Virus record (IMG/VR): IMGVR_UViG_3300012931_000017
Coordinates: 33,415 to 97,414 of that record
Direction: 5' to 3' (one strand)
Length of the DNA stretch: 64,000 nucleotides
Origin: a virus
Part shown: one piece after another, positions 5,355 through 49,685 of the stretch
Layout: every line of letters starts with the position of its first letter
Numbering within the stretch: the stretch's first letter is position 1
Notes under the pieces: generated by a model
Database searches by the model: none
The model's input: the letters and a program-made list of their open reading frames with translations, nothing else
What the model was told of the DNA's origin: nothing
Translations under genes and position numbers: made by a program

Positions 5355-6866
5355 CTAAGTTGCATTTTCCTGTAGTTCTATATCTGTAATTTGTAGATTA
5401 TGATAATCAAAACCCTGTTTATCATAATATTTTAGTCTTTCTTCAAAATGATCAAACAAATAATTATTTTTTAATCTTCCAGTTCTTAATTTAACTCGTA
5501 AATCATCAACTACATCCCATAAAATCATTTGATCTTTAGACTCATGAGTGCGTAATCCTCGACCAATTGACTGAAGAACCTTTATTTTTGATTTGTATGA
5601 TGAAAAGAACACTACGTTATGTATTTTTTTTATGTTAATTCCGACAGCCATAGTTTGATAAGTTCCAACTAATATCATATTATCTTCTATTTCCATTAGT
5701 TTTCTTAATTCTTCTCTTTTAGTTGCACTTATTTCACCATAAATAACACAAACTTTATACTTATCATCTAAATTATCAATTAAATATTGTTCAATTAGCT
5801 TTAAGTGTTCTATATGTTTGCAAAGAATGAGGGTATTTTCTTTATCATTTATATTACTGAATATGAAGTTTAATATTTTATATCTACCTTTATGACTCTC
5901 TACTAAACGTTCTTCTTCAGGATAAGATCTATTTTTGTATTCATTAATAATTCCTATCGGATATTTATAGAGCAAATTAGCAATGGTTATTTTTGCTAAT
6001 ACACCTTTATCTATTAGTTCCCCTGAAGTAAGTTCAAATATTTTAGGGCCTAAATAACCATAGATGGTAAACATATCAATATCATCATCAGGTAATGTTC
6101 CGGTAAAACCAAATTTATAATAAGCATTTGAACATTTAATCATAATGCTTTTTAAAGATTTTGAATCTAAACTTAACCCATGACACTCATCCATTAAAAC
6201 TGCATTAAATTGAGAAAAAAAATCTTCACCTTTAGTATAAATTGACTGCCAAGTTGAGACTAATATTTTTTTACCAGTTATTTTTTTGCCAGAATATAAA
6301 ATATCAACAAAATCAACAACTTCTTTCCATCCATATTCAGAAAAATCGGAGAACATTTGTTCAACTAGTGATATATTTGGTACAACTAATAAAATATTTC
6401 CTTCAACTTGTTCAATTAGAAACCTAATAATAGAATAAATTATTAGTGATTTTCCGGAACCTGTAGGAGATTCCACAACTCCACGTTTATTATAAAGGGA
6501 ATTTTTTATAGCTTCTATTTGATAATCTCTTGGTTTCAAATCACCAATAAAAATAGAATCGAAGAATATTTGTAAATTATCATCGGTTATTTCTTCATCA
6601 AAGAATTGGGAAATATCAAAGTCAAATTTAAATGGGTAGTTTTTTTCAGTTAAATAATTTACTAATTTTCCAAGTAAACCAATAGGCAGAAGGTGGGTTT
6701 TTATATCAAAAAAAGAGATTCTTCCATCCCAAATTCTAGCTTTAAATCTTGGATGAAATTTATAATTCTTAGCATAGCAACTAAAAATATCTCTAATTTC
6801 ATAAGCATATTCTTTTTCACAATCAACACAAACATAAACTTCATTAATTTTTTCAATATTTATCAC
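5355..6866 (-). CDS. uvsW: UvsW-like SF2 DNA helicase (GTG start)
   Basis: N-terminal 'FHPRFKARIWDGRISFFD' mirrors T4 UvsW 'FNPRFRYGNWDGRIRLLD'. Walker A 'SPTGSGKS', DEAD-box variant 'VLMDECH', 'TGT', and 'QSIGRGLR' motif VI. RBS AGGAGAG upstream of GTG at 6866. Confidence 0.85.
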   Translation of the reverse strand: MINIEKINEVYVCVDCEKEYAYEIRDIFSCYAKNYKFHPRFKARIWDGRISFFDIKTHLLPIGLLGKLVNYLTEKNYPFKFDFDISQFFDEEITDDNLQIFFDSIFIGDLKPRDYQIEAIKNSLYNKRGVVESPTGSGKSLIIYSIIRFLIEQVEGNILLVVPNISLVEQMFSDFSEYGWKEVVDFVDILYSGKKITGKKILVSTWQSIYTKGEDFFSQFNAVLMDECHGLSLDSKSLKSIMIKCSNAYYKFGFTGTLPDDDIDMFTIYGYLGPKIFELTSGELIDKGVLAKITIANLLYKYPIGIINEYKNRSYPEEERLVESHKGRYKILNFIFSNINDKENTLILCKHIEHLKLIEQYLIDNLDDKYKVCVIYGEISATKREELRKLMEIEDNMILVGTYQTMAVGINIKKIHNVVFFSSYKSKIKVLQSIGRGLRTHESKDQMILWDVVDDLRVKLRTGRLKNNYLFDHFEERLKYYDKQGFDYHNLQITDIELQENAT

Positions 6867-6943
6867 AAATAAACTCTCCTGAGTTAGTTTAAACTAAAAA
6901 CCTCAAGATTATTTATCTTATGATAACTTTTTATTCAACTAAT

Positions 6944-7074
6944 TCTTCAACTAATTTAAACCTCTGCAAATCAATGAAACTATCTTAGGCATAGACAAGT
7001 ATACCTTTTCTATTTTTCGCGGATTTGAACTGGTTATTATTAGTTTAAATAGGTTTTAAATATAGATTTGAAAT
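6944..7074. repeat. left arm of a ~130-bp inverted repeat (partner at 8357..8488, about 90% identical)
   Basis: The reverse complement of 6944-7074 aligns base for base to 8357-8488 with a few substitutions. It contains a tRNA T-arm-like 'GGTTCAAATCCGCG' on the complementary strand. Confidence 0.8.
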
Positions 7075-7089
7075 TATATTTGTGGATAA

Positions 7090-7479
7090 TCAAATTGGTG
7101 TCATAGAATCAAGAACTTTTTTAGTATTAAAAACCATAACTATGCCTTTGGAAGATTTCATTGAAATTCTATCACCAGAATCAATAATACCAACTATAGT
7201 CCAGACTTCATTAAATTTTTTGCTTTTAAACTGTTTACCGATAACTATATCAGGATTAGTTTTCGATTTTTTTAAAGTTTGTGCTGGTTCAGCTTGAGGA
7301 GTATCTTCTTTACTTTTCTGGTTTATTGCAGCTAATATCTTTTGTTTTACTTCATCAGTTGGATTATGAGCTTTAAGATAACTTTGTAAATCATCTTTAG
7401 AAGTTTTATTAATCCAAGCATCAGTTGAATCATCTTCGTTTAATTTATAGTTTTGATTATAATCTAAAAAACTTAACAT
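7090..7479 (-). CDS. hypothetical protein (129 aa), in the uvsY.-1 position
   Basis: ORF track; lies immediately downstream of uvsY on the same strand, as uvsY.-1 does in T4. Confidence 0.4.
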   Translation of the reverse strand: MLSFLDYNQNYKLNEDDSTDAWINKTSKDDLQSYLKAHNPTDEVKQKILAAINQKSKEDTPQAEPAQTLKKSKTNPDIVIGKQFKSKKFNEVWTIVGIIDSGDRISMKSSKGIVMVFNTKKVLDSMTPI

Positions 7480-7488
7480 TTGTTTCTC

Positions 7489-7929
7489 CTAAATTCCACC
7501 AATATAAAATTTATCAACCTCTAATTTATTTTTTAAAGACCAATGAAAATCTTTTATATTTATAAGTTGTTGAGCTAAAAACTCAACTTGTCTTCTTTGA
7601 TTCTCTACAACCCTATATTTATTGAGATAATCTTTATTTCCTTCGATATAAGTTGTAATTTCACCTTTAGAATCTAAACTATATTCAAATTCTAAACCAT
7701 CTCCTCTCTTTGGGAATTTATATTTGTGATAAAGTGTTGAGAAAGTTTCTTTTAACATAATTTCAAAATTTATTAGTTTATTCTTTTCAGTATCTAAAAG
7801 ATTTGAGGTTTCTTGTATTAAACCAGGAATCTTATTTAATTTAGTTTGTATATTGAGTTTAGAGGAATCATCTATAACCAATTCCTTCTCGTAATATTCT
7901 TTTAGTTGATCAAAATCTTCATCCTTCAT
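7489..7929 (-). CDS. uvsY: UvsY recombination mediator
   Basis: 'KFPKRGDGLEFEYSLD' matches the T4 UvsY 'YSGRGDGDEFSMD' core. Size 146 aa; adjacent to uvsW as in T4. Confidence 0.7.
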   Translation of the reverse strand: MKDEDFDQLKEYYEKELVIDDSSKLNIQTKLNKIPGLIQETSNLLDTEKNKLINFEIMLKETFSTLYHKYKFPKRGDGLEFEYSLDSKGEITTYIEGNKDYLNKYRVVENQRRQVEFLAQQLINIKDFHWSLKNKLEVDKFYIGGI

Positions 7930-7949
7930 TTATTCACCTTCTTAGAGTT

Positions 7950-7985
7950 TACTTTTAAAATAACATTTTAAAATATAATTGTCAA
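7950..7985 (-). promoter_or_regulatory. copy of the conserved early-promoter element, minus-strand orientation, driving uvsY
   Basis: The reverse complement reads TTGACAATTATATTTTAAAATGTTATTTTAAAAG, about 25 nt upstream of the uvsY start. Confidence 0.6.
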
Positions 7986-8356
7986 ATCATCTTCTAATTT
8001 TTAATCTTCATTGGCACTCTACTATATGTATTCAGATCTTAGATCTTTTCATATAATCCTAAAGGATTATATGTTGCTTAAAGTCTTACACCAAATATTA
8101 GTTAAATTAGTCTTAAAACATCTTATTAGTCTTTATAGTCTTAATAGTTAAATTTATAATCAAAAGACGTAGTCTTTTGTCTTATAGCTTTAGCTATAAG
8201 ATAATTTAATAACCTTTAATTTCTTTATTATAGTATATCATTCAAGAAATCGATAAAAATGCCCGAATTTGGTAAATAATACTTATTCTTTGGGTAATAA
8301 CTAAAATACACTAATTTGGTGATAATTTTATAAGAATATGAGTAGATTTTATTTTA

Positions 8357-11364: not shown

Positions 11365-11745
11365 ATGGCTAAAATTTATGTTAAAAATAGTGAGTTTCTT
11401 GAACTTTTAAGAAAATTTGAAGAAACTAAAGATAGAAAAATATATGAAAAGCTAGGAAAGATTTTCATGTTAATTGCTCAGAATTTTTTAAATAAACCTT
11501 GGTTTATTAATTATACTGATGATAGAAAAGATGAAATGATTAGTGATGCTTATTATTGTATGATAAAGTATCGAGAAAATTTTGATCTTTCAAAAAATAA
11601 CCCATTTGCTTATTTTACAATGATAGCTCATAATGCTTTTCTTCAAAATATTAAAAAATATAAACTAAGACAAGAAAAATATATTAGTTTAGATTTAACC
11701 GAAACTTTAGATTATAGTCAGTCAACAATTATGATGGGTGAATAA
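11365..11745 (+). CDS. gp55: gp55-like late-transcription sigma factor
   Basis: 126 aa; 'IFMLIAQNFLNKPWFINYTDDRKDEMISDAYYCMIKYRENFDLSKNNPFAYFTMIAHNAFLQNIKKYK' parallels T4 gp55 ('[69 protein letters not shown]'). Confidence 0.7.
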   Translation: MAKIYVKNSEFLELLRKFEETKDRKIYEKLGKIFMLIAQNFLNKPWFINYTDDRKDEMISDAYYCMIKYRENFDLSKNNPFAYFTMIAHNAFLQNIKKYKLRQEKYISLDLTETLDYSQSTIMMGE

Positions 11746-13982: not shown

Positions 13983-13987
13983 ATTTG

Positions 13988-27059: not shown

Positions 27060-27251
27060 ATGATAATTGATGGTTGGGGACCAACTCAATCTTTCTTAAG
27101 AAATGTTCAAACTATGAATATTGAACAAATTAAAAGTTCCATTGAATATTTGGAAATGTTATTGAATAGTGAAAAGTTCTCTTATGATCCAAAAATGATT
27201 ATTAAACGATTAGCTGATTTAAAAGAACAAGTTGAGTTTTTAACTACATGA
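27060..27251 (+). CDS. hypothetical small protein (63 aa)
   Basis: ORF track. Confidence 0.25.
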   Translation: MIIDGWGPTQSFLRNVQTMNIEQIKSSIEYLEMLLNSEKFSYDPKMIIKRLADLKEQVEFLTT

Positions 27252-27760
27252 ATATAATATTTCCTTTAAAAACTACATTTATAGATTATCCTGATAATGA
27301 AAGTGAAGCTATATTAATATTTTTTATGGGTTGTGACAATAATTGTTCTGGTTGTCATAATATAAATTTTAAAAATTATAATTATAAAAATGCTAAGGTT
27401 TTCTCACCAACTGATTTAAAACTAGAAATTGATAAATTATCAAAAAGAATTAATTCTAATAAAGTAGTTTTAACTGGTGGAGATCCTTTATCTAAGTTTA
27501 ATATAAATGAAATAAAACAATTGACAATTATATTAAAAAATTATAATTTAATGATATATACAGGACATGATATTGAATATGTAAAGAGAAATGAAATTAA
27601 AAATTTTGCATTTATAAAATGTGGTATTTTTGATATTAATCAAAAGCAAATATCAGAAAAAAATGATATTTTTTTTAAACTTGCATCTAAGAATCAACAA
27701 TTATACGATGCAGATTATAACTTAATAAGTAATACTGGTGTTTATTATTTTAACAATTAA
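27248..27760 (+). CDS. nrdG: anaerobic ribonucleotide reductase activating protein (radical SAM)
   Basis: 'FFMGCDNNCSGCHN' CxxxCxxC cluster; immediately upstream of nrdD. Confidence 0.75.
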   Translation: MNIIFPLKTTFIDYPDNESEAILIFFMGCDNNCSGCHNINFKNYNYKNAKVFSPTDLKLEIDKLSKRINSNKVVLTGGDPLSKFNINEIKQLTIILKNYNLMIYTGHDIEYVKRNEIKNFAFIKCGIFDINQKQISEKNDIFFKLASKNQQLYDADYNLISNTGVYYFNN

Positions 27761-27774
27761 TGGAGATTTAAGAA

Positions 27775-29253
27775 ATGTTTGATAATGATGATAATATTAC
27801 TACTTATAGAACCCTCAAAAATATGAGGAATGCTTTAAAACAATCATTAAAAACTAAATATAACATAGAAGATGATGATAAAATAGACCAAATATTATCA
27901 ATTCATGGAATTACCAAAGACAGATTTGATTTTATAAAAACTATTGAATCTACTATAATGGATAAATTAAATGATGTTTCTATTGATGCAAATTCAAATA
28001 AAAATGAAAAAACTATTGAAGCTATAACACAAGAAGCTATTGCTCCAGTTAAAAAAGCTATTGGTTATGATTTTTTGTATAGACAAATGAAAATACTCTA
28101 TGGAAAAGAAGAAGCTAAAAGACTTACTGGTGAAATGTACGATTTAAGTTTAGGACTATCAGATAGCACTAACATTATGAAGTGTTATTGTTGGGCTCTT
28201 GATGCTTCAAAGTTAGTAACTATAGGAAGAGAATTTGGGCAGCTTTGGTCAAAACCATCAAAACGAGTTTCTAGCTATATTTCAGCTCTTTGTGAAACTA
28301 TTCATCAAATGAGTAGCCATTTAGCTGGTGCAATAGCCATCGGTACTTTTTTTCTTGATGTTGCTCATCTGTCTTTATTTAAAGAACAGTTTGATTTAAG
28401 GGAACTAAAAACTAATTCTGAATTTAGAAAAAAATTAGAAAATGAATTTCAGCAATTTATACATTCGGTTAATCATTTAAGTAGAAATGGTAGTGAAAGC
28501 CCGTTTACAAATATTAGTGTATTCGATAGAATAAAACTAAAATCTCTTATTAATGACATGAGTTGGTATTTTCCTTTTGAAGAACTTCCTATCAATCATC
28601 CAAAAGAATTAGAAACGGAAGAACAACAAAAAGAATTCTATATTAACTATATTATAGATTATGTAATGGAAATTCAAAATATATTTCTTGACTTCTTTGA
28701 TAAAGGTGATGTAAGTAAAGATGGTTTACCATATAGATTCCCTCTAGTTACGGTTAATATTTCAAAGAAAAAATGGGGAGACAAAGAAATAATTGAGGAT
28801 TTGGATTTTCTTAAGTCTATATGTAAAAGGGAAATTTATCGTTATAATATTTTTACTAGTGAAGGAACTAAAATTTCAAGCTGTTGTTTTTCTGGAAATG
28901 AGATAATAAAAATCAAAACAAAAGACGGTGAGTCTATATATAGTTCATTAAAAAATTTTGTTGAACTATATTCCGAAGATTTAGAATTTGAACAAAAAAT
29001 TCCTGACGAATATTATATTGATTCGTTGAATAATGAAAATAAAATAGAAAGTACCAAAATACTTGGTGTATTAAAAAAGAAAAATAATACAGGAAAATTA
29101 ATATCTATAACAAGTAATGGAAGAAATATTAAAATTACACCGGATCATATTTTAAAAGTTTTAGATAAAACAACTAAAAAAGAAAAAGAAATTACTGCAT
29201 TAGAATTGAAAAATAATTTTAATAACTATTTGATTCCATTAAATTTAAAATAA
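27775..29253 (+). CDS. nrdD: anaerobic ribonucleoside-triphosphate reductase NrdD, N-terminal extein (27775-28884) fused in frame to the N-terminal half of an intein (28885-29250), ending at a stop codon
   Basis: NrdD-like N-extein. Intein block A 'CFSGNEIIKIKTKDG' starts at the second Cys of 'SSCC', block B is 'ITPDHIL', and a TAA stop follows 'IPLNLK'. Confidence 0.8.
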   Translation: MFDNDDNITTYRTLKNMRNALKQSLKTKYNIEDDDKIDQILSIHGITKDRFDFIKTIESTIMDKLNDVSIDANSNKNEKTIEAITQEAIAPVKKAIGYDFLYRQMKILYGKEEAKRLTGEMYDLSLGLSDSTNIMKCYCWALDASKLVTIGREFGQLWSKPSKRVSSYISALCETIHQMSSHLAGAIAIGTFFLDVAHLSLFKEQFDLRELKTNSEFRKKLENEFQQFIHSVNHLSRNGSESPFTNISVFDRIKLKSLINDMSWYFPFEELPINHPKELETEEQQKEFYINYIIDYVMEIQNIFLDFFDKGDVSKDGLPYRFPLVTVNISKKKWGDKEIIEDLDFLKSICKREIYRYNIFTSEGTKISSCCFSGNEIIKIKTKDGESIYSSLKNFVELYSEDLEFEQKIPDEYYIDSLNNENKIESTKILGVLKKKNNTGKLISITSNGRNIKITPDHILKVLDKTTKKEKEITALELKNNFNNYLIPLNLK

Positions 29254-29261
29254 TTGCTTCC

Positions 29262-29310
29262 TGTTGTTTTTAGTTAAAGTATAAATATTGATAATACTTT
29301 AAACAACAGG
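29262..29310 (+). promoter_or_regulatory. stem-loop between the Int-N stop and the endonuclease-gene RBS
   Basis: CCTGTTGTTT...AAACAACAGG 10-bp inverted repeat, followed by AGGAGATAATTATG. Confidence 0.5.
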
Positions 29311-29318
29311 AGATAATT

Positions 29319-30503
29319 ATGATTGAGTGTCCATATTGTAAAAACCTTTACTCTAATATAAAAACCCATATATTTTATAAACATGGTAAAAGTTATGAAG
29401 ATTTTAAACGGGAATTTCCTAATTTTGGAAAGACTCAAGAAACTGTTTCTTATTGGGACGGCATTTATTATAAATGTGAATTTTGTAAAAATGTTGGAAA
29501 AACTAAACGCAAATCAATGTTATTAAATCATTATAAAAAATATCATTATAATGAATTAAACGAAAGTCAAAAAATAGAGGTTGATAAATATGTTGAATCT
29601 AAAAACAAATTGGATCTAAATGAATTAATAACCTGTCCAATTTGTGAAAGAAAAGTAAGAATGTTTAAACAACATATTGAGAGAGGTCATTGTTTAAATT
29701 GGAATAAATTTTGTGAAGATTATAATTTTGATAAAAATTTAAAATGTATTATTACTAAAAATCACAAAAATCAATTGTCCATTAATAAGAAACTATTTTA
29801 TCAATCTGAAATTGGATTAGATCAAAGAAAACATTTATCAAAAAAATTTTCAGGAAATGGTAATTTTGCAAAACTAAAATATGTTAGAGAAAAAATTTCA
29901 AAATCAATGTTGAGTAATAATAGAACAAATCAACAATTAGGTAGTTTTGGTTTAATAGTTAATTTCATTTATAATAACCAAGAATATTTTTGTAGAAGTT
30001 TTGTTGAATTTAGAATTTTATTTGCTTTACTTGAAAATAATATTCCGTTTGAATATGAAAAAAATAGATTTTTATATGAATTAGATAGTGGTTTAAAACG
30101 GATTTATATTAGTGATTTGAAAATAAACGACCATATATATGAAATCAAAGCATTTTCTGGAGTTAATATAGAGGAAGGAAAATTTAAGGGTTTTGATGTT
30201 TACAATAAAAATATAAGAATCATTATAGAGAAATCTGGTTTTTCTTTTAAAATAGTAAATTATTCTATGCTTATGGATGAACTAAATTTAGAAAAAAATC
30301 CTGATTTTTATTATGCAAATAAAATAAAAGAAATGTTAGAAAAAAATGAAATTAAAAAATTGCAATTTCTGGTTTTTTCACGAAGTAAATTGAAAAGCAA
30401 TTTTTTTAAAAAATACAACATAGATATAGAAAAATATGCTTGTGTTAATTATAAAGAATTTATAAAAGAAAATGGAGATAAAATAAATGATAACTTGGTG
30501 TGA
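29319..30503 (+). CDS. free-standing homing-endonuclease-like protein: three C2H2-like zinc fingers plus a C-terminal PD-(D/E)xK/Vsr-like nuclease domain
   Basis: 'CPYC...HIFYKH', 'CEFC...HYKKYH', 'CPIC...HIERGHC' fingers; C-terminal 'ISDLKINDHIYEIKAF'. Confidence 0.55.
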   Translation: MIECPYCKNLYSNIKTHIFYKHGKSYEDFKREFPNFGKTQETVSYWDGIYYKCEFCKNVGKTKRKSMLLNHYKKYHYNELNESQKIEVDKYVESKNKLDLNELITCPICERKVRMFKQHIERGHCLNWNKFCEDYNFDKNLKCIITKNHKNQLSINKKLFYQSEIGLDQRKHLSKKFSGNGNFAKLKYVREKISKSMLSNNRTNQQLGSFGLIVNFIYNNQEYFCRSFVEFRILFALLENNIPFEYEKNRFLYELDSGLKRIYISDLKINDHIYEIKAFSGVNIEEGKFKGFDVYNKNIRIIIEKSGFSFKIVNYSMLMDELNLEKNPDFYYANKIKEMLEKNEIKKLQFLVFSRSKLKSNFFKKYNIDIEKYACVNYKEFIKENGDKINDNLV

Positions 30504-31512
30504 AATCGAAAAGGTTGAAGAACTTGAAGATAATAACTATGTCTATGATATAGAACTTGAAAATAATCATTATTTTCCTTCTAATGGAATTGTTAGTCAT
30601 AATTGTAGACTAGTTTCGCAGCCAGAAATGTTAAAATTAGCTTCTCAAGTAAATTCGTTTGGTGGAGGTGGTTCTATTTCTTTAGGTAGTCATAGAGTAT
30701 GTACTATAAATTTTAATAGAATTGCATTAGAATGTAAGGATTATGATGATTATTTTAAAATTTTGGAAAATAGACTAGAAGATTCAACCAAAATTTTAGT
30801 TTCTCATAAAGAGCTTATAAAAAATCTAACTAAACAAGGTTTACAAATGTTTATTTCTAATGGTTGGATAAACATGAACAGAATGTTTTCTACTTTTGGT
30901 TTAATAGGTATTTATGAAGCTTGTCAATATATGAATGAAAAATTCGGTTCTTATGATGATTTAGAAAAAGATATATTAGTTTTTGTTAATAAAAAGGTTG
31001 AAGAATTATCCGTAAAATATAACATTAGTGGAAATATTGAGCAAATTCCTGCTGAAAGTTTTGCTATTAGATTGTGTAATGCTGATAAAATTCTTTTTGG
31101 TGAGGATAAAGTAAATTATAAAATTTATGCAAACCAGTTTATACCACTTTGGAATGACGCTACTATTTGGGAAAAAATGGAAGCCGATGGTAGACTTAAT
31201 AAACTTATTACAGGGGGCTCTCTTGTCCATTGTCAAATTGGAGAACGAGTTACATCAAAACAAGCAGAAAAAATAATTAGATACGCCGTTCAAAGTGGGT
31301 GTGAACATTTTGCTCTTAACTCTGTATGGTCTCAATGTGAGCACAATCACGCTTCTTTTGGGAAAGTACTAATTTGTCCTATATGTGGTGGAAAAATAGT
31401 AGATTATTTAACTAGAGTTGTAGGATTCTTTACTCCAGTTTCTTCTTGGACTAAAATTAGAAGAGAGTGGGAATTTGAAAATAGAAAATTTAATAATTTA
31501 GATCAAATATAA
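30487..31512 (+). CDS. nrdD: Int-C (39 aa) fused to the NrdD C-terminal extein (glycyl-radical domain)
   Basis: Int-C blocks F/G '...NGIVSHN' then 'CRLVSQPEM...'; C-terminal zinc site 'CEHNHASFGKVLICPICGG' and glycyl-radical-like 'TRVVGFFTP'. Confidence 0.8.
   Translation: MITWCEIEKVEELEDNNYVYDIELENNHYFPSNGIVSHNCRLVSQPEMLKLASQVNSFGGGGSISLGSHRVCTINFNRIALECKDYDDYFKILENRLEDSTKILVSHKELIKNLTKQGLQMFISNGWINMNRMFSTFGLIGIYEACQYMNEKFGSYDDLEKDILVFVNKKVEELSVKYNISGNIEQIPAESFAIRLCNADKILFGEDKVNYKIYANQFIPLWNDATIWEKMEADGRLNKLITGGSLVHCQIGERVTSKQAEKIIRYAVQSGCEHFALNSVWSQCEHNHASFGKVLICPICGGKIVDYLTRVVGFFTPVSSWTKIRREWEFENRKFNNLDQI
31399..31492 (+). repeat. 94-bp direct repeat, copy 1 (nrdD 3' end)
   Basis: Identical to 32469-32562. 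Confidence 0.9.
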
Positions 31513-31616
31513 ATACACATAAGGATATAGAGGACAGTGATTGATCGTCATTTTCTTCCACTAAAGAATTACTTTATATCCTCTTACTTTTATAAACCTG
31601 TAGTGGAGGTGTCGTT

Positions 31617-32585
31617 ATGTGTATTCCTAATTCAATTTATGTAAGTGTAAAACCCGAAACATTAATTTTAGATCTTAGGATTAAAAGACATAAAGTAAAA
31701 ATGGTTTATTTTATTGTATATAAAACTACTAATTTAATAAATCATAAGATTTATGTTGGAATTCATTTACAATTAAATAATTTAGATTTTGATGGTTATT
31801 TGGGTTCTGGTAAACTTATAAAGCTTTCTATAAAGAAATATGGAAAAGAAAATTTTAAAAGAGAAATTATTGAAGTTTGTAAATCTTGGAATGAACTAGA
31901 AGAAAGAGAAGTTTATTGGATTGAATATTTTCACACTTATATTAAAAAATATCCTAATGACAAAGGGATGAATTGTAGCATTGGAGGTACAAGTGGGTTA
32001 AGTGGATGCAAAAATAAACATTGGAGTAAAGGTAGAACTAAGAATGATTGTGAATCTTTAATGAGAATGGCAGAATCAAGAAAAGGTTTAAATAATCCAG
32101 TACATAAAATACCAAAAGAAAAAATGAAATTAATAAATGAAAAAAGATCAAAAATTATGATTGGGATATTAAAAGGTAGAAAAGTTCCTTGGATTGATAA
32201 ATCTGCTAAAACATTAAAATTACGATACAAAAATGAACCAGAATTAAAAGAATATTGTAAAACTTTTAAATATATTATTAAAATTATATTTAAAAATGAA
32301 TCTAAAGTAGAATATGGTTTCTGTTTAGAAGATATTTCTAAGAAATATAATGTAAGTTTGGGTGCCATTTATTCTATAACCCGTAAAAGAAGAAAAAATA
32401 TTTGGGTTGATGATTTAACCTTTGAAATTATACATACTTTTGTTCCAGTTGTTAAATTAGAAAAAGTTGTAGATTATTTAACTAGAGTTGTAGGATTCTT
32501 TACTCCAGTTTCTTCTTGGACTAAAATTAGAAGAGAGTGGGAATTTGAAAATAGAAAATTTACAAAAATACCTGAAGTTCAATAA
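31617..32585 (+). CDS. GIY-YIG homing endonuclease whose 3' end is a duplicated copy of the nrdD 3' end
   Basis: 'VYFIVYKTTNLINHKIYVGIH...YLGSG' GIY-YIG motif. The last 31 codons '...VDYLTRVVGFFTPVSSWTKIRREWEFENRKF' are identical to the NrdD C-terminus. Confidence 0.8.
   Translation: MCIPNSIYVSVKPETLILDLRIKRHKVKMVYFIVYKTTNLINHKIYVGIHLQLNNLDFDGYLGSGKLIKLSIKKYGKENFKREIIEVCKSWNELEEREVYWIEYFHTYIKKYPNDKGMNCSIGGTSGLSGCKNKHWSKGRTKNDCESLMRMAESRKGLNNPVHKIPKEKMKLINEKRSKIMIGILKGRKVPWIDKSAKTLKLRYKNEPELKEYCKTFKYIIKIIFKNESKVEYGFCLEDISKKYNVSLGAIYSITRKRRKNIWVDDLTFEIIHTFVPVVKLEKVVDYLTRVVGFFTPVSSWTKIRREWEFENRKFTKIPEVQ
32469..32562 (+). repeat. 94-bp direct repeat, copy 2
   Basis: See 31399..31492. Confidence 0.9.
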
Positions 32586-32847
32586 AGAAATAATAAAAAT
32601 GATAACTAAAAAATCTTGGTTTGAATTTAGAAACACCGGACTATTATTAATAATTAATCAAATTCTGCATATTTTTGGTTGGGCGATTGTAATTGATACA
32701 GATGATGAAGGAAATCTTATAGATTGTTATCCTGCAAGAGTTAAATTTAGAGGTTTTTCTGAGGATTCTGTTTCAGCTGCCTATATAAAACTTAGTAAAT
32801 TTATGAAAGATAATGTAGATTCTTTAGTTGATGAAGCAAATTCTTAA
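32545..32847 (+). CDS. hypothetical protein (100 aa)
   Basis: ORF track; overlaps the 3' end of the GIY-YIG ORF. Confidence 0.25.
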   Translation: MKIENLQKYLKFNKEIIKMITKKSWFEFRNTGLLLIINQILHIFGWAIVIDTDDEGNLIDCYPARVKFRGFSEDSVSAAYIKLSKFMKDNVDSLVDEANS

Positions 32848-32856
32848 TAATTTTTA

Positions 32857-32890
32857 TTGACAATTATACTTTAAAATTTAATATTAATAT
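32857..32890 (+). promoter_or_regulatory. conserved early-promoter element upstream of queE, followed by a short hairpin (ATCCAGAGAAGAAATTCTTTGGAT)
   Basis: TTGACAATTATACTTTAAAATTTAATATTAATAT. Confidence 0.6.
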
Positions 32891-32953
32891 CCAGAGAAGA
32901 AATTCTTTGGATATTTTTATTTTGTAAAACTTAAAAATTGGACTAATTAAAAA

Positions 32954-33625
32954 ATGAAAATAATTGAAAAATACGCCGGTTTTCAAGGCGAAGGAAAATA
33001 TCAAGGTAGAAACTCATTGATTCTAAGATTTCCTAATTGCCTTTGTTCGTGTAAATTTTGTGATTCGAAATATTCTTGGTTAAGTCCTAAAATTTTAGAT
33101 ATTCCGGATGAAGAGATATTTAAAGATATAGAAAAATCTGATAATATTATGTTTACTGGTGGAGAACCCTTAATTCCAGAAAATTATGAAGAAATAGAAA
33201 AAATTATAGTTAAGTTTCAAAAACTTAAAACTTATGAAATAGAAACTAATGGAACCATAAATCTTAAAGATAATGCATTAATTTCTTATTTTAAAGAAAA
33301 TATTACATTTAATATTTCACCAAAAAATAATATTGACCAAATTAATATAGATTCTAAAACAGAACCGATTTTATTAAATAATATTAAGTCATATAATTAT
33401 ATTGTGAAATATTTATTTGATTCTTATGAAGATTTGGTTTTTATAACAGAGCAACAAAAAATTTATGATATTCCAAGAAATTTAATTTATGCTCAACCAA
33501 AAGGAACTAATTCAAAAGTATTGAAAGATTTAATAACTAAATACTATGATATAATTATTAGTAAGGGTTGGAATATTTCTTACAGAAGTCATATATTCTT
33601 GTTTGAAAATGATAGAGGATTTTAA
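32954..33625 (+). CDS. queE: 7-carboxy-7-deazaguanine synthase QueE (radical SAM)
   Basis: 'FQGEGKYQGRNSLILRFPNCLCSCKFCDS' radical-SAM cluster in the QueE arrangement; 'FTGGEPL'. Confidence 0.7.
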   Translation: MKIIEKYAGFQGEGKYQGRNSLILRFPNCLCSCKFCDSKYSWLSPKILDIPDEEIFKDIEKSDNIMFTGGEPLIPENYEEIEKIIVKFQKLKTYEIETNGTINLKDNALISYFKENITFNISPKNNIDQINIDSKTEPILLNNIKSYNYIVKYLFDSYEDLVFITEQQKIYDIPRNLIYAQPKGTNSKVLKDLITKYYDIIISKGWNISYRSHIFLFENDRGF

Positions 33626-33673
33626 TAGTACAATAACAAAGATATTTAAAACTGAAACTAATTTTAAGGAGAT

Positions 33674-34045
33674 ATGATGATTCTAAAACTTTACACAGAA
33701 ACTGTAATTGATATTGCTCATTATTTGAGCGGGTATGCTGGAAATTGTAGTAATACTCATGGCCATTCGGAAAAAATATGTATTTGGGTTGAAGGTGATA
33801 GTAGATGGAAAAATGATGTAGGAATTCTTTTTGATTTTGCTTCTGTTAAAAAAATTAAAGAAAAATATGATCACAGAATGCTTAATGAAATTGAACCTTT
33901 TGATAAAATTAATCCAACTGCAGAAAATATTTCTGAAGTAATTTATAATGATTTAAAAAATGAAAGACCCGAATTAAAATTTAAAGTTAGAGTTTATGAA
34001 ACATATGTTGGTAAAGAAACTTATTGTGAACTCGGTGATTTTTAA
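33674..34045 (+). CDS. queD: 6-carboxy-5,6,7,8-tetrahydropterin synthase QueD
   Basis: 'CSNTHGHSE' Cx3HGH zinc/catalytic motif of the PTPS/QueD family; about 120 aa. Confidence 0.8.
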   Translation: MMILKLYTETVIDIAHYLSGYAGNCSNTHGHSEKICIWVEGDSRWKNDVGILFDFASVKKIKEKYDHRMLNEIEPFDKINPTAENISEVIYNDLKNERPELKFKVRVYETYVGKETYCELGDF

Positions 34046-34178
34046 ATTGATTCCATTGATTAAACTAAGATGTAAAGAAACTGTTAAGAAGTTACCTAAA
34101 GTTATTCCACCAAAGAAAGGGAAACAAAAACCCTTTCAAAGAAGAAAGCGAGTTGATTTAGATGAAAACCAACAATAA
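33996..34178 (+). CDS. possible small basic protein (60 aa, K/R-rich); may be spurious
   Basis: ORF track; overlaps the queD 3' end in another frame; 'KKLPKVIPPKKGKQKPFQRRKR'. Confidence 0.15.
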   Translation: MKHMLVKKLIVNSVIFKLIPLIKLRCKETVKKLPKVIPPKKGKQKPFQRRKRVDLDENQQ

Positions 34179-34632
34179 TTCTTATATTATGACTTGGGAC
34201 GATTTAATTAAACGAGTTCAATATCTTCAGGATGATATTTATACTTATTTAGGAGAGTTTAATAGACTAAAAATATATGGTGTTCCGAGAGGTGGTCTTA
34301 TGTTAGCTTCAGTATTTACAACTCTTGGTTGGAATGAATTAGTATTTGATCCTAATAAAGCCGATATAATTATTGATGATATTATTGATAGTGGTGCAAC
34401 TAAAAAATATTATACCGAAAAGTATAATAAACCATTCTTTGCTCTTATTGATAAACAAAATAATGAAGAACATAAAGAACTTGGATGGTTAGTTTTTCCG
34501 TGGGAATCCTCAAAACCAGATACTCTAAATGATAATTTACTTCGTGTTCTTCAGTTTTATAATTTACCTGATAGTTATTTACCTGCATTAAATGATAATA
34601 TTGAATTGTTTATTAAAAATTTAGATTATTAA
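34162..34632 (+). CDS. small type-I phosphoribosyltransferase-domain protein
   Basis: PRPP-binding motif 'ADIIIDDIIDSGAT'; 'GVPRGG'. Confidence 0.55.
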   Translation: MKTNNNSYIMTWDDLIKRVQYLQDDIYTYLGEFNRLKIYGVPRGGLMLASVFTTLGWNELVFDPNKADIIIDDIIDSGATKKYYTEKYNKPFFALIDKQNNEEHKELGWLVFPWESSKPDTLNDNLLRVLQFYNLPDSYLPALNDNIELFIKNLDY

Positions 34633-34641
34633 TGATTTTTA

Positions 34642-34675
34642 TTGACAATTATACTTTAAAATTTAATATTTAATT
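34642..34675 (+). promoter_or_regulatory. conserved early-promoter element upstream of folE
   Basis: TTGACAATTATACTTTAAAATTTAATATTTAATT. Confidence 0.6.
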
Positions 34676-34697
34676 AAACATTTATGAAAGGATCATT

Positions 34698-35396
34698 TTG
34701 GAAACATTAGTTAAAGTTTGTGCTAAATGTGGAACTTATGAAGACTTAACCGAATTTGATAATATAGTTATTTGTAAGTCATGTCTTAAAAAGTATTCTC
34801 TGAAAAATAATATTCGTAAGTTTACAGGCATTCCAGAAATAGAACGTGCCGGAGAATTAATATTAGAAGGTCTTAAAAATACTTTTGGTTTGGATATAAC
34901 CGATCCTAATTTCAAAGATACTCCTAAACGTATGGCTAGAGCTTATTATGAAATCTTTGAAGGAATAAATTCCAAAGAAGAAATTGATGATATATTATCT
35001 ACTAGTTTTCCTTCACAATATAATGCAATGGTGGTTGCTAAAGATATACATTGTTTTTCAACCTGTCCTCATCATATATTACCAGTTGAATATAAAGTTA
35101 ATTTGGGTTATATTCCTTCAGAACAAGTTTTAGGAATATCTAAATTATCAAGATTGGTTGAATTATTAGCTAAACAACCTAAATTACAAGAAGATTTTAC
35201 TAATGATATAGTTAATATTCTTGAATCTAATATTAAACCTAATGGTGTTATTTGTCAAGTTAGAGGAAGACATTTGTGTATGGCTATGAGAGGTGCTAAA
35301 CAACCTAATTCTTGGACTCTTACAAGTACAATTACTGGAGCATTTAATAGATTAGAAACTCGAAATGAATTTCAAATGTTGATAACGGGTGAATAA
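34698..35396 (+). CDS. folE: GTP cyclohydrolase I
   Basis: 'KDTPKRMARAY', 'CPHHILP', 'GISKLSRLV', 'GRHLCMAMRG' - all four signature blocks of FolE. Confidence 0.9.
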   Translation: METLVKVCAKCGTYEDLTEFDNIVICKSCLKKYSLKNNIRKFTGIPEIERAGELILEGLKNTFGLDITDPNFKDTPKRMARAYYEIFEGINSKEEIDDILSTSFPSQYNAMVVAKDIHCFSTCPHHILPVEYKVNLGYIPSEQVLGISKLSRLVELLAKQPKLQEDFTNDIVNILESNIKPNGVICQVRGRHLCMAMRGAKQPNSWTLTSTITGAFNRLETRNEFQMLITGE

Positions 35397-36730
35397 TGAT
35401 TGATATAAATGAATACTTTAAAAAGGTTAATTATTATATAGCAACCTCCGATGAAATGATCGGAATTGATGCTAATTATGATTATTTGAACGATAATTTT
35501 TCTCACGAAAATAAACAAGAACGAGTTAACGTAACCTATTATGATTTGATTGATGACAAATATATGGATGGAGTTTTAACATCCAAAGCATTAGTTACTG
35601 GTAGACAAGTAGAAACTTATACTTCATTAGGAGGACTAAGGAAATACTTTAATATTCCAAAAAGTTATTATTTGATGGGTGATTGTGGAGCACCTACATA
35701 CTTTAACGAAGATAATCCACCATTTACGATTAGTGATCTTTTAGATTTTTATGAAAATCTTGATTTAGATTTTGGTATAACATTAGATCATATTGTTGAT
35801 ATGGTTGATATGACTAACAGAATTAAACCAACAAAAACTCATATTTATCGAAGAGAACTTTCTTGTAAAAATGCAATTGAAATGCTAAAATTAGTTAAAG
35901 AAAGAAAATCGAAAATATATTTATTAGGTTCTGTACAAGGTTGGAGTCCCGAATCTTATAAGCAATCATTAATTGAGTTAGGTGAAGCAGGATTTAAATA
36001 TTGTGCTATTGGTGGATTAACTATGACAGGTAATACTGATATAGTATCACAAATTCTTAGTTATTTAACACCAACAGCTAAGAAATATGGAATTAAATTA
36101 CATTTACTTGGGTTTGGTAGATTAGCTCTATTATCATCATTTTTAAAATATGATATATTGAGTTCTATTGATAATTCTACACCATTATTAAATGCCAGTA
36201 ATGCACCAACATCGGCTTATTTCTTTAATTTAAAAAATAAGTTTTATAAATATGACACTATTTATCTTCCAATTTTTAGTAAAGGAGCTCCTTCCTTGAA
36301 TAAGAAGATAAAGAATCTTTATGAAAATGATTATAGTGATATTATTGTTGAGTTAGATGAATTTTCCCATAATATAGTTAAACAATTAAGAGAATTTGAT
36401 GAATTAGAAAACTCAAAAGAAATAAAAAATAAAGAATTATTTAATTCAATATTAAGAAATATACAAAAGTTTGAGTTAATGCATCGTAAATATTCTGGAA
36501 CTAATCATGATGGAATGAATACTTATTTAAACGAAATTAAATTAGTATTAAATAGCAAATGTTGGAAAAACTGTAGTTGTCCTCTTTGTAAAACTTATGG
36601 TATTAATATGGTTACTTTTAGATCTCAAATGAGAAATAAATTGAGAGGTATTCATAATTTAAAACATTATTACGATTATTTTTGTTGTGAGTTAAATAAA
36701 AATAATAAAATGAACAAATTTTTACTTTAG
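35396..36730 (+). CDS. dpdA: tRNA-guanine-transglycosylase-family protein, probable DNA 7-deazaguanine transglycosylase DpdA
   Basis: 'LGSVQGW...CAIGGLTM' (TGT 'GIVQGG...AIGGLSVGE'), 'LHLLGFG...DSSTP', zinc site 'CSCPLC'. Lies inside the queCDE/folE cluster, as dpdA does in phage 7-deazaguanine systems. Confidence 0.7.
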   Translation: MIDINEYFKKVNYYIATSDEMIGIDANYDYLNDNFSHENKQERVNVTYYDLIDDKYMDGVLTSKALVTGRQVETYTSLGGLRKYFNIPKSYYLMGDCGAPTYFNEDNPPFTISDLLDFYENLDLDFGITLDHIVDMVDMTNRIKPTKTHIYRRELSCKNAIEMLKLVKERKSKIYLLGSVQGWSPESYKQSLIELGEAGFKYCAIGGLTMTGNTDIVSQILSYLTPTAKKYGIKLHLLGFGRLALLSSFLKYDILSSIDNSTPLLNASNAPTSAYFFNLKNKFYKYDTIYLPIFSKGAPSLNKKIKNLYENDYSDIIVELDEFSHNIVKQLREFDELENSKEIKNKELFNSILRNIQKFELMHRKYSGTNHDGMNTYLNEIKLVLNSKCWKNCSCPLCKTYGINMVTFRSQMRNKLRGIHNLKHYYDYFCCELNKNNKMNKFLL

Positions 36731-49345: not shown

Positions 49346-49443
49346 TACAAAATCTTTGCTCGTGTCGAATAATGATTAGTTCAACTGATTTTCAGTCAGT
49401 TAATTGGAGTTTGATTCTCCACACGAGTATTTTTAATTTATTT

Positions 49444-49527
49444 GGGTGATTCGCATAGTGGTCAAGTGCTCCTGACTGTAGATCAGGCGGCGAAAGCCTT
49501 TCGGTGGTTCAAATCCATCATCACCCA
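49444..49527 (+). tRNA. tRNA-Tyr (GTA), class II with long variable arm
   Basis: Hand-folded. Acceptor GGGTGAT/ATCACCC, D-stem GCAT/GTGC, anticodon stem CCTGA/TCAGG with loop CTGTAGA, 15-nt variable arm, T-arm GGTGG-TTCAAAT-CCATC. Confidence 0.8.
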
Positions 49528-49539
49528 TTTTTATTTTAA

Positions 49540-49603
49540 TGACTTGTATTTCAATTGGTAGAACCCAGAGATGTAGTTGTAGGTTCAAATCCTTCCAAGT
49601 CAG
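49540..49603 (+). pseudogene. degenerate tRNA-like element (64 nt): acceptor, D-arm and T-arm present, anticodon arm truncated
   Basis: Acceptor TGACTTG/CAAGTCA, D-arm TTTC-AATTGGTA-GAAC, T-arm GTAGG-TTCAAAT-CCTTC, but only about 13 nt where the anticodon arm plus variable region (about 22 nt) should be. Confidence 0.45.
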
Positions 49604-49612
49604 TTTTCTTAT

Positions 49613-49685
49613 TGCAGGGTTGAGAAAGGGATTCTCACAAGCCTCATAAGCTTGGATATGAAGTTTCAAATCCTTCCTCTGCAAG
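49613..49685 (+). tRNA. tRNA-Met/fMet/Ile2 (CAT)
   Basis: Acceptor TGCAGGG/CTCTGCA, D-arm GAGA-AAGGGAT-TCTC, anticodon arm CAAGC-CTCATAA-GCTTG, T-arm GAAGT-TTCAAAT-CCTTC (one mismatch). Confidence 0.7.

Follow-up and report, generated by a model that had tools for sequence, protein, structure and literature searches.

A GIY-YIG homing endonuclease gene flanked by two identical copies of the nrdD 3' end in a T4-like phage

Hybrids between a host gene and a mobile open reading frame (ORF) have been described for fungal mitochondria, namely for atp6 of Allomyces macrogynus and for atp6, atp9, cox2 and nad3 of Glomus (PMC3630166). The inserted C-terminal copy is foreign in these hybrids, with 63-81% nucleotide identity to the native one, and the native piece is sometimes also expressed (PMC3630166). 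In phage T4, the HNH endonuclease gene mobC is located directly past the 3' end of nrdD (PMC2988022). Local duplication driven by an endonuclease has been obtained experimentally with SegB in phage T6, where the new junction falls within the 3' end of the endonuclease gene itself and the C-terminus is removed (PMC13096335). Partial gene duplications beside free-standing homing endonucleases were found in the open-access literature in organellar reports only and in none from phages; the main text of the review on T4 homing endonucleases does not mention duplication (PMC2988022). Here, a phage locus is described in which a gene for a putative GIY-YIG homing endonuclease stands between two identical copies of the penultimate coding segment of nrdD. 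The locus is part of a stretch of 64,000 nt (the window) which corresponds to positions 33,415 to 97,414 of the IMG/VR virus record IMGVR_UViG_3300012931_000017 and was derived from the 97.8-kb contig k141_4222033 of ENA assembly ERZ27227667. The phage is T4-like and has a GC content of 26%; its syntenic relatives carry gp32 and RNaseH.

Bases 31399-31492 (copy A) are identical to bases 32469-32562 (copy B) over 94 nt on the plus strand, and identity ceases at both ends. This recurrence had been reported in an initial annotation of the window and was confirmed; the pair is the longest exact repeat of the window, the runner-up having 57 nt. Chance origin of an exact 94-mer in a sequence of 26% GC is excluded. 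Local alignment of the repeat flanks (200 nt on the left, 128 nt on the right) against shuffled sequences revealed no meaningful similarity. Homology extending past the 94 nt was considered on the basis of a protein-level resemblance (CPICGGKI and VPVVKLEKV) and was discarded for want of support at the DNA level. Both copies are translated in the NrdD frame as VDYLTRVVGFFTPVSSWTKIRREWEFENRKF, the distances to the respective ORF starts (31399-30487 and 32469-31617) being multiples of 3. Copy A encodes residues 305-335 of the C-terminal NrdD ORF, with the glycyl-radical Gly313 at codon 31423-31425, and copy B is read as residues 285-315 of the endonuclease, with Gly293 at codon 32493-32495. The repeat holds RVVGF, which upon alignment with the family motif was assigned as the glycyl-radical motif of class III ribonucleotide reductases; the 94 nt encode the glycyl-radical finger plus the terminal helix of NrdD. 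The initial annotation had taken the repeat as the last 31 codons of both ORFs. The count of 31 residues holds, but they form the penultimate segment of either protein and not its extreme end, as NNLDQI and TKIPEVQ, respectively, come after.

As the sequence is one contig of one sample from a metagenome assembly, the arrangement might be an artefact or a strain chimera in which the assembler had joined endonuclease-bearing and endonuclease-free variants of the phage. This is exceedingly improbable. With its 94 nt, the repeat falls short of the final k of 141 suggested by the contig name, and single k-mers would cover the repeat and its unique flanks. Joining two variants that both lack the junction between the 3' end of the endonuclease gene and copy B could not create it, and all ORFs concerned are intact and in frame.

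The C-terminal nrdD ORF (30487-31512, plus strand; 341 amino acids) starts with a C-terminal intein fragment (residues 1-39, ending with VSHN), which is followed by the NrdD C-extein. It matched the Pfam families NRDD (5.9e-53) and Intein_splicing (1.3e-6), and its best solved relative was the Thermotoga NrdD 4coi (1.5e-50). Behind copy A, nrdD presently terminates with six new codons encoding NNLDQI and a TAA stop codon at 31510-31512 (tail A, 31492-31512, plus strand). Behind copy B, seven codons encoding TKIPEVQ and a TAA stop codon at 32583-32585 follow (tail B, 32562-32585, plus strand), which end 13 nt short of the next gene.

The two ends were compared with the closest related locus (L016), one of 13 IMG/VR loci retrieved with a degenerate DNA pattern for RVVGFFxPVSSW. 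L016 has the upstream gene order RNaseH, TnsA-like, NrdG, NrdD in common with the window, and its NrdD is a single, unsplit protein of 670 amino acids, with neither an intein nor a GIY-YIG gene. It is 83% identical to the protein of the window in the N-extein and 66% identical over the alignment with the C-terminal ORF, which runs to ...KFTKIP. The terminus of L016 NrdD reads ...EFPNRKF-TKIPKD*. Codon by codon, its tail TKIPKD* and tail B compare as ACG/ACA, AAG/AAA, ATT/ATA, CCA/CCT, AAA/GAA, GAT/GTT and TAA/CAA (L016/window): the first four codons differ at the third position only and the next three by one base each. Tail A bears no similarity to the tail of L016. Because tail B is homologous to TKIPKD* and tail A has no counterpart, copy B together with tail B is read from the sequence as the displaced original terminus of nrdD, and the insert as tail A, the leader and the endonuclease gene. 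The 94 nt are approximately 82% identical to L016, and both copies are equally close to it. Since this is the identity expected of resident sequence, nothing marks copy A as foreign. Two metagenome contigs, L023 and L034, matched the C-terminal NrdD sequence of the window plus tail B as well as L016 did, and they are counted with it as the closest relatives, with an unsplit NrdD and no endonuclease. The check for the ancestral copy proposed in the initial annotation, by means of endonuclease-free relatives, thus pointed to the downstream copy (TKIPEVQ* resembling TKIPKD*). Its statement that the endonuclease carries its own duplicate of the nrdD end stood as to the duplication and was refined as to the ownership, since the endonuclease is fused to the resident, native end of nrdD.

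The preferred explanation, to which a probability of roughly 0.7 is assigned, is that a GIY-YIG cassette was inserted within the last codons of nrdD, that 94 nt of the resident gene were duplicated, and that the downstream copy is the displaced original terminus. The cassette comprises bases 31493-32468, namely tail A with its stop codon, the leader of 104 nt and the endonuclease ORF without a stop codon of its own; it is promoter-poor and free-standing. One recent illegitimate event could have inserted the cassette and duplicated the 94 nt at the same time, either by a template switch returning 94 nt behind the point of departure or by a join between two sister genomes at points 94 nt from each other. 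A break made by the endonuclease may have initiated the event, and selection would have let through only those products in which nrdD retained its glycyl-radical end. The upstream copy with its new tail of six codons keeps nrdD complete, and the endonuclease ORF runs in frame into the native terminus, giving an enzyme that ends in 38 NrdD residues. The insertion of a free-standing endonuclease gene into the nrdD 3' end, with a duplication keeping nrdD intact, had already been proposed in the initial annotation and gained support from the relatives which lack the endonuclease.

The duplication might instead have been imported. A mobile unit carrying the 3' end of a donor nrdD, made up of copy A and tail A, would then have inserted shortly before the glycyl-radical motif; the resident end would have been displaced, and the two copies would later have been equalised by gene conversion, e.g., by cutting of the susceptible resident copy by the endonuclease and repair from copy A. 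The parts follow one another as in the fungal hybrids, with the gene core first and then an inserted C-terminus, the endonuclease ORF and the native C*-terminus, and an insertion at 31398/31399 without a carried 3' end would have destroyed nrdD. Tail A also looks like a NrdD tail in some respects: it fits the pattern F-x-x-[ILV], has I at position +6, and its stop codon is placed as in the relatives P0123 (ISLKDI*) and P0154 (VDVKDI*). This likeness amounts to 2-3 residues in an AT-rich genome, however, with a chance probability estimated at approximately 0.05-0.1. The copies differ at 0 of 94 nt, compared to a difference of about 18% between relatives and an identity of just 63-81% between the fungal copies, so an additional step of homogenisation would be required. 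No donor was found, and the nearest relatives of the endonuclease occur in unrelated contexts. An imported copy is regarded as unlikely on these grounds.

The insertion-with-duplication account has to be held against several points of its own. Tail A keeps the family rule F-x-x-[ILV], with a hydrophobic residue at +3, and resembles the tails VDLKKI, VDVKDI* and ISLKDI* of several relatives; it could be a true foreign NrdD tail, which would favour import. The single-event account is the most economical one, but the mechanism of duplication is deduced from its product. The endonuclease-free ancestor of this very phage was not seen, no relative being closer than approximately 66-83% identity, and the locus is represented by a single metagenomic contig from a single sample. 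An upstream segment that was imported and then homogenised and one that was duplicated in place are not separable, as the copies are identical and the collections searched contain no closer relative. Finally, every stretch of up to 94 nt of the reconstructed endonuclease-free allele is still present in the genome. Because of this, self-immunity cannot result from disruption of the target. By analogy with other Seg/Mob enzymes, the endonuclease probably targets a variant sequence carried by other phages, or else self-protection may come from elsewhere, e.g., from the 7-deazaguanine pathway encoded right downstream.

The endonuclease ORF (31617-32585, plus strand; 322 amino acids) was assigned by Pfam and PHROG matches, conserved residues and an AlphaFold2 model, all of which bear out its initial annotation as a GIY-YIG endonuclease. 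It scored 25.6 bits (1.5e-5) against SegE_GIY-YIG, the cut-off being 25, 20.4 against PF01541, slightly under the cut-off of 22.6, and 1.5e-26 against PHROG 314 ('homing endonuclease'). A total of 2215 homologues were found. Among 79 of them, Y46, G48, Y61, G63, E98 and N119 were invariant and Y35 nearly so. By our own reading of these motifs, the tyrosines of the GIY and YIG core and a glutamate and an asparagine equivalent to E75 and N90 of I-TevI appear to be present. Residues 31-120 were modelled with a predicted local distance difference test score (pLDDT) of 95-98. The best fold match in the PDB was the catalytic domain of I-TevI (1mk0; probability 1.00, target TM-score 0.68, root-mean-square deviation 3.3 Å), and sequence search matched no solved structure. 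The protein is composed of the catalytic domain (residues 30-125), a helical linker, a beta/helix-turn-helix-like domain (approximately residues 218-275) and residues 285-322, which are the 38 residues of NrdD sequence (copy B plus TKIPEVQ*). In the model, the second domain consists of strands and two helices, and its pLDDT reaches 91. Matches to helix-turn-helix families were sub-threshold only (Mor, 0.098; Sigma70_r4, 0.19); the homologue P0119 has PF02796. Homologues with a C-terminal helix-turn-helix stop 6-20 residues past that module, so that essentially the whole enzyme lies ahead of the junction at residues 284/285. The ORF is judged from sequence and model to be a genuine Seg-like GIY-YIG homing endonuclease, with predicted activity. 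A group I intron or other RNA family was considered and rejected: there was no Rfam match at the gathering threshold in the whole window, none at E <= 1 over 31300-32700, and there is no non-coding sequence 3' of the endonuclease ORF.

The NrdD tail of the endonuclease raises the question of a function. Stand-alone spare parts of approximately 14 kDa are known for glycyl-radical enzymes (YfiD/GrcA of E. coli and Y06I of T4); they have been demonstrated only for pyruvate formate-lyase and are proposed for other glycyl-radical enzymes (PMC8683613). By comparison, the finger on the endonuclease might act as a substrate or decoy for the activase NrdG, which is encoded at 27248-27760, or replace the damaged portion of oxygen-cleaved NrdD as a spare part. 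The entire RVVGF finger and all residues C-terminal of it are present in the duplicated piece, with TRVVGFF at residues 289-295 fitting RVxG[FY]; the fusion is in frame and intact, and as in the known spare parts, one of them in T4, a second glycyl-radical motif occurs outside the parent enzyme in a phage. In-frame fusion has a chance of 1 in 3, however. Only 8 NrdD residues are left upstream of the glycine, and the zinc-binding cysteines are gone (CPICGGKI in NrdD compared to VPVVKLEKV in the endonuclease). At E <= 0.01, the endonuclease gave no Pfam match to Gly_radical or NRDD. In the AlphaFold2 model, its region 271-322 did not reproduce the NrdD hairpin, the tail being modelled as a low-confidence helix with mean pLDDT of 32-66 for blocks of 10 residues. 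The fusion is a singleton without a conserved counterpart, and the start signals of the endonuclease gene are masked by the leader structure. Unlike YfiD/GrcA and Y06I, the piece has 31 residues, is without the portion preceding the finger and forms the end of a nuclease. A functional fusion is thus considered quite improbable, and the more specific proposal that the tail is recognised by NrdG and then either serves oxygen-damaged NrdD in trans, as a spare part or decoy, or couples the nuclease to anaerobiosis, even slightly more so. If true, class III ribonucleotide reductases would thereby gain their first spare-part-like element, one borne by a selfish gene. Most likely the fusion is incidental, a result of recent illegitimate insertion, and we infer that the tail is a by-product without a function of its own. 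T4 gp49.2 (annotated 'ribonucleotide reductase') was examined as an analogue of the spare parts and rejected, as it has no similarity to the glycyl-radical region.

The endonuclease gene is preceded by a structured leader (31512-31626, plus strand), which was recognised by its fold and an 11-nt inverted match. The spacer between the nrdD stop codon and the AUG of the endonuclease gene is 104 nt. The region 31510-31640 folds to -32 kcal/mol (z = -3.0), with 2 of 200 shuffled sequences being equally stable, and so the partly palindromic leader noted upstream of the gene in the first inspection is a real structure by prediction. A perfect stem of 11 bp is formed by 31512-31522 and 31615-31625. 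It includes the AUG (31617-31619), and its 5' arm abuts the nrdD stop codon. In addition, the GGAGG ribosome-binding site (31605-31609) is paired with CCUCU (31580-31584) and has CUUCCACUA (31555-31563) as an alternative partner. At 31508-31515 (plus strand), overlapping the nrdD stop codon and the 5' arm of the AUG-masking stem, the T4 late-promoter consensus TATAAATA is present. An RNA beginning at 31521, approximately 6 nt past this element, was no more stable than shuffled sequences (z = -0.4). A homologue of gp55, the T4 late sigma factor, is encoded at 11377-11658 (38% identity over 103 amino acids, E = 2.5e-11). Five of the 13 plus-strand copies of TATAAATA are intergenic, and two of these five precede the two endonuclease-like ORFs of the locus. 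Upstream of the other one, an ORF of 394 codons, a hairpin at 29243-29328 (-24.7 kcal/mol, z = -5.3, none of 200 shuffled sequences equally stable) masks the ribosome-binding site and the AUG, with TATAAATA at 29280-29287 inside the loop; this is the textbook layout of the I-TevI type in T4.

Hairpins at the ribosome-binding site in combination with late promoters have been described in T4 for I-TevI, I-TevII, I-TevIII, segB and mobE (PMC2988022). By analogy, the leader, TATAAATA and gp55 are predicted to constitute a T4-style control of the endonuclease. In read-through nrdD mRNA, the leader would pair the ribosome-binding site and the AUG, and translation of the endonuclease would be kept low. 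Release could be brought about by late transcripts starting just past TATAAATA at 31508-31515, which would lack the 5' arm. It could also be brought about by ribosomes terminating at the nrdD stop codon, a route considered equally possible because the 5' arm abuts this codon. Two findings speak against such a control: in the shorter RNA from 31521 the ribosome-binding site can still pair, and TATAAATA is not enriched in the AT-rich window (22 copies found, 27 expected).

Further cases were sought among related loci and in sequence collections. None of 74 loci (18 related ones plus 56 metagenome or viral pattern matches) contained a second copy of the nrdD tail, each nrdD locus having one tail only; the 55 metagenome pattern matches were mostly due to chance, with only L023 and L034 being real. 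In the syntenic loci L003 and L004, the C-terminal nrdD ORF is directly followed by QueE, without the endonuclease gene and without the 82-amino-acid gene that is located behind it in the window. NrdD relatives reached 61-68% identity. The search of IMG/VR with the single C-terminal NrdD protein returned no related loci, and the best NrdD match among GenBank phages was that of Clostridium phage c-st (35%). In a set of 5.8 billion protein clusters, the exact fusion protein stands alone as a singleton. The next-best homologue of the endonuclease is 46% identical in the N-terminal half only, the nearest homologues (P0002 and P0006) are found in unrelated contexts, and in GenBank phages only the GIY-YIG domain was matched, to T4-like seg genes. 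Within the window, neither a paralogue of the endonuclease nor a second copy of the leader was detected.

A search of 1.84 billion representatives for NrdD tails joined to a non-NrdD body yielded only P0258 and P0250, on contigs of 1069 and 519 bp which are possibly chimeric; neither protein is informative. P0258 consists of the N-terminal domain of a DNA ligase and a NrdD tail that starts at almost the same residue as the 94-nt repeat, and P0250 of unrelated sequence joined to a NrdD tail. Two further proteins, P0292 and P0299, have a tandem micro-duplication within the glycyl-radical motif itself.

The nrdD gene is interrupted a second time. It is fractured over 27775-31512 by an intein at the site SSC|CRL, with NrdD-N plus the N-terminal intein fragment at 27775-29253, followed by the 394-amino-acid endonuclease-like ORF (29319-30503) and the C-terminal nrdD ORF. 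The endonuclease-like ORF has three zinc-finger-like CxxC...HxxxH motifs and a D...ExK-like motif and matches phrog_22215; no Pfam family was assigned to it. C-terminal NrdD ORFs of approximately 340 amino acids which start with a C-terminal intein fragment are common in the clade. That two separate mobile elements, the split intein with its endonuclease-like ORF and the GIY-YIG gene, have hit nrdD had been suggested before and is in agreement with L016, which is unsplit and endonuclease-free. Genes in which a free-standing endonuclease gene separates the two halves of a split intein have been described as 'fractured genes' (Dassa et al. 2009, PMC2677866). These fit the interruption over 27775-31512, but not the 94-nt repeat or the GIY-YIG insertion. 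In L003, nrdD is split in another way: at 5736-8068 it consists of two ORFs (387 and 355 amino acids) with a gap of approximately 100 nt, and the second ORF, whose start lies ahead of the SSCCRL site, has no recognisable C-terminal intein fragment.

Downstream of the endonuclease gene lies the gene of 82 amino acids (32599-32847, plus strand; phrog_16397), to which no function was assigned. It is absent from all related loci fetched, its only match among GenBank phages is in Brevibacillus phage Sundance, and a promoter-like element and a terminator-like hairpin are located downstream of it. This promoter-like element, TTATTGACAATTATACTTTAAAATTTAATATT, has 32 nt and occurs in six plus-strand copies with at most 2 mismatches (0 expected), at 13985, 21332, 32854, 34639, 40334 and 63327. 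The copy at 32854 is placed between the 82-amino-acid gene and QueE and is followed by the terminator-like hairpin at 32886-32915. A set of genes for 7-deazaguanine DNA modification was found at 32954-36730, encoding a QueE-like radical-SAM protein, QueD/PTPS, GTP cyclohydrolase I and a TGT/DpdA-like ORF. Other exact direct repeats of the window are 8500-8556/8919-8975 (57 nt) and 8788-8839/9398-9449 (52 nt). Five tRNA genes are arranged in two clusters at 49358-49684 and 62517-63303.

The locus offers a clean and apparently fresh view of how a free-standing homing endonuclease gene enters the coding end of an important gene while the gene survives. The native nrdD terminus is still intact and identical beside its replacement. 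Homologous recombination between the direct repeats would delete the cassette precisely and regenerate native nrdD. It is predicted that the target of the endonuclease is found elsewhere or in a variant allele, and that translation of the endonuclease is gated by the leader. Being one isolated case with a probably neutral effect on the phage, the locus is of illustrative and not conceptual value. It connects the biology of phage Seg/Mob endonucleases, the gene hybrids of fungal mitochondria and the recent evidence of Seg-driven local duplication.

With the Seg/Mob endonucleases of T4 the locus shares a Seg-like GIY-YIG gene within a cluster for nucleotide metabolism. Since mobC of T4 also follows nrdD, the 3' end of this gene is a repeated landing site for endonuclease genes. 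A GIY-YIG endonuclease and a local duplication are likewise common to the present locus and to SegB in phage T6. There, tandem arrays of the whole tRNA-segB unit are formed, which are selected by a host defence system, whereas at the nrdD locus the endonuclease gene is flanked by just one 94-nt duplication, derived from the end of the gene next to it. The closest likeness is to the fungal hybrids, which also consist of a host-gene core, a completing C-terminal copy, an endonuclease ORF (GIY-YIG in atp9 of Glomus) and a displaced native C-terminus. They are found in an organelle and not in a phage, and their inserted copy is diverged, whereas the phage copies are 100% identical over 94 nt and only tail A with its six residues is distinct. 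Furthermore, the fungal ORFs often continue the phase of the gene that precedes them; in the phage, a stop codon and the masking leader intervene, and the endonuclease is fused instead to the downstream native end. The locus is thus the phage counterpart of a mitochondrial gene hybrid, caught with its copies still identical.

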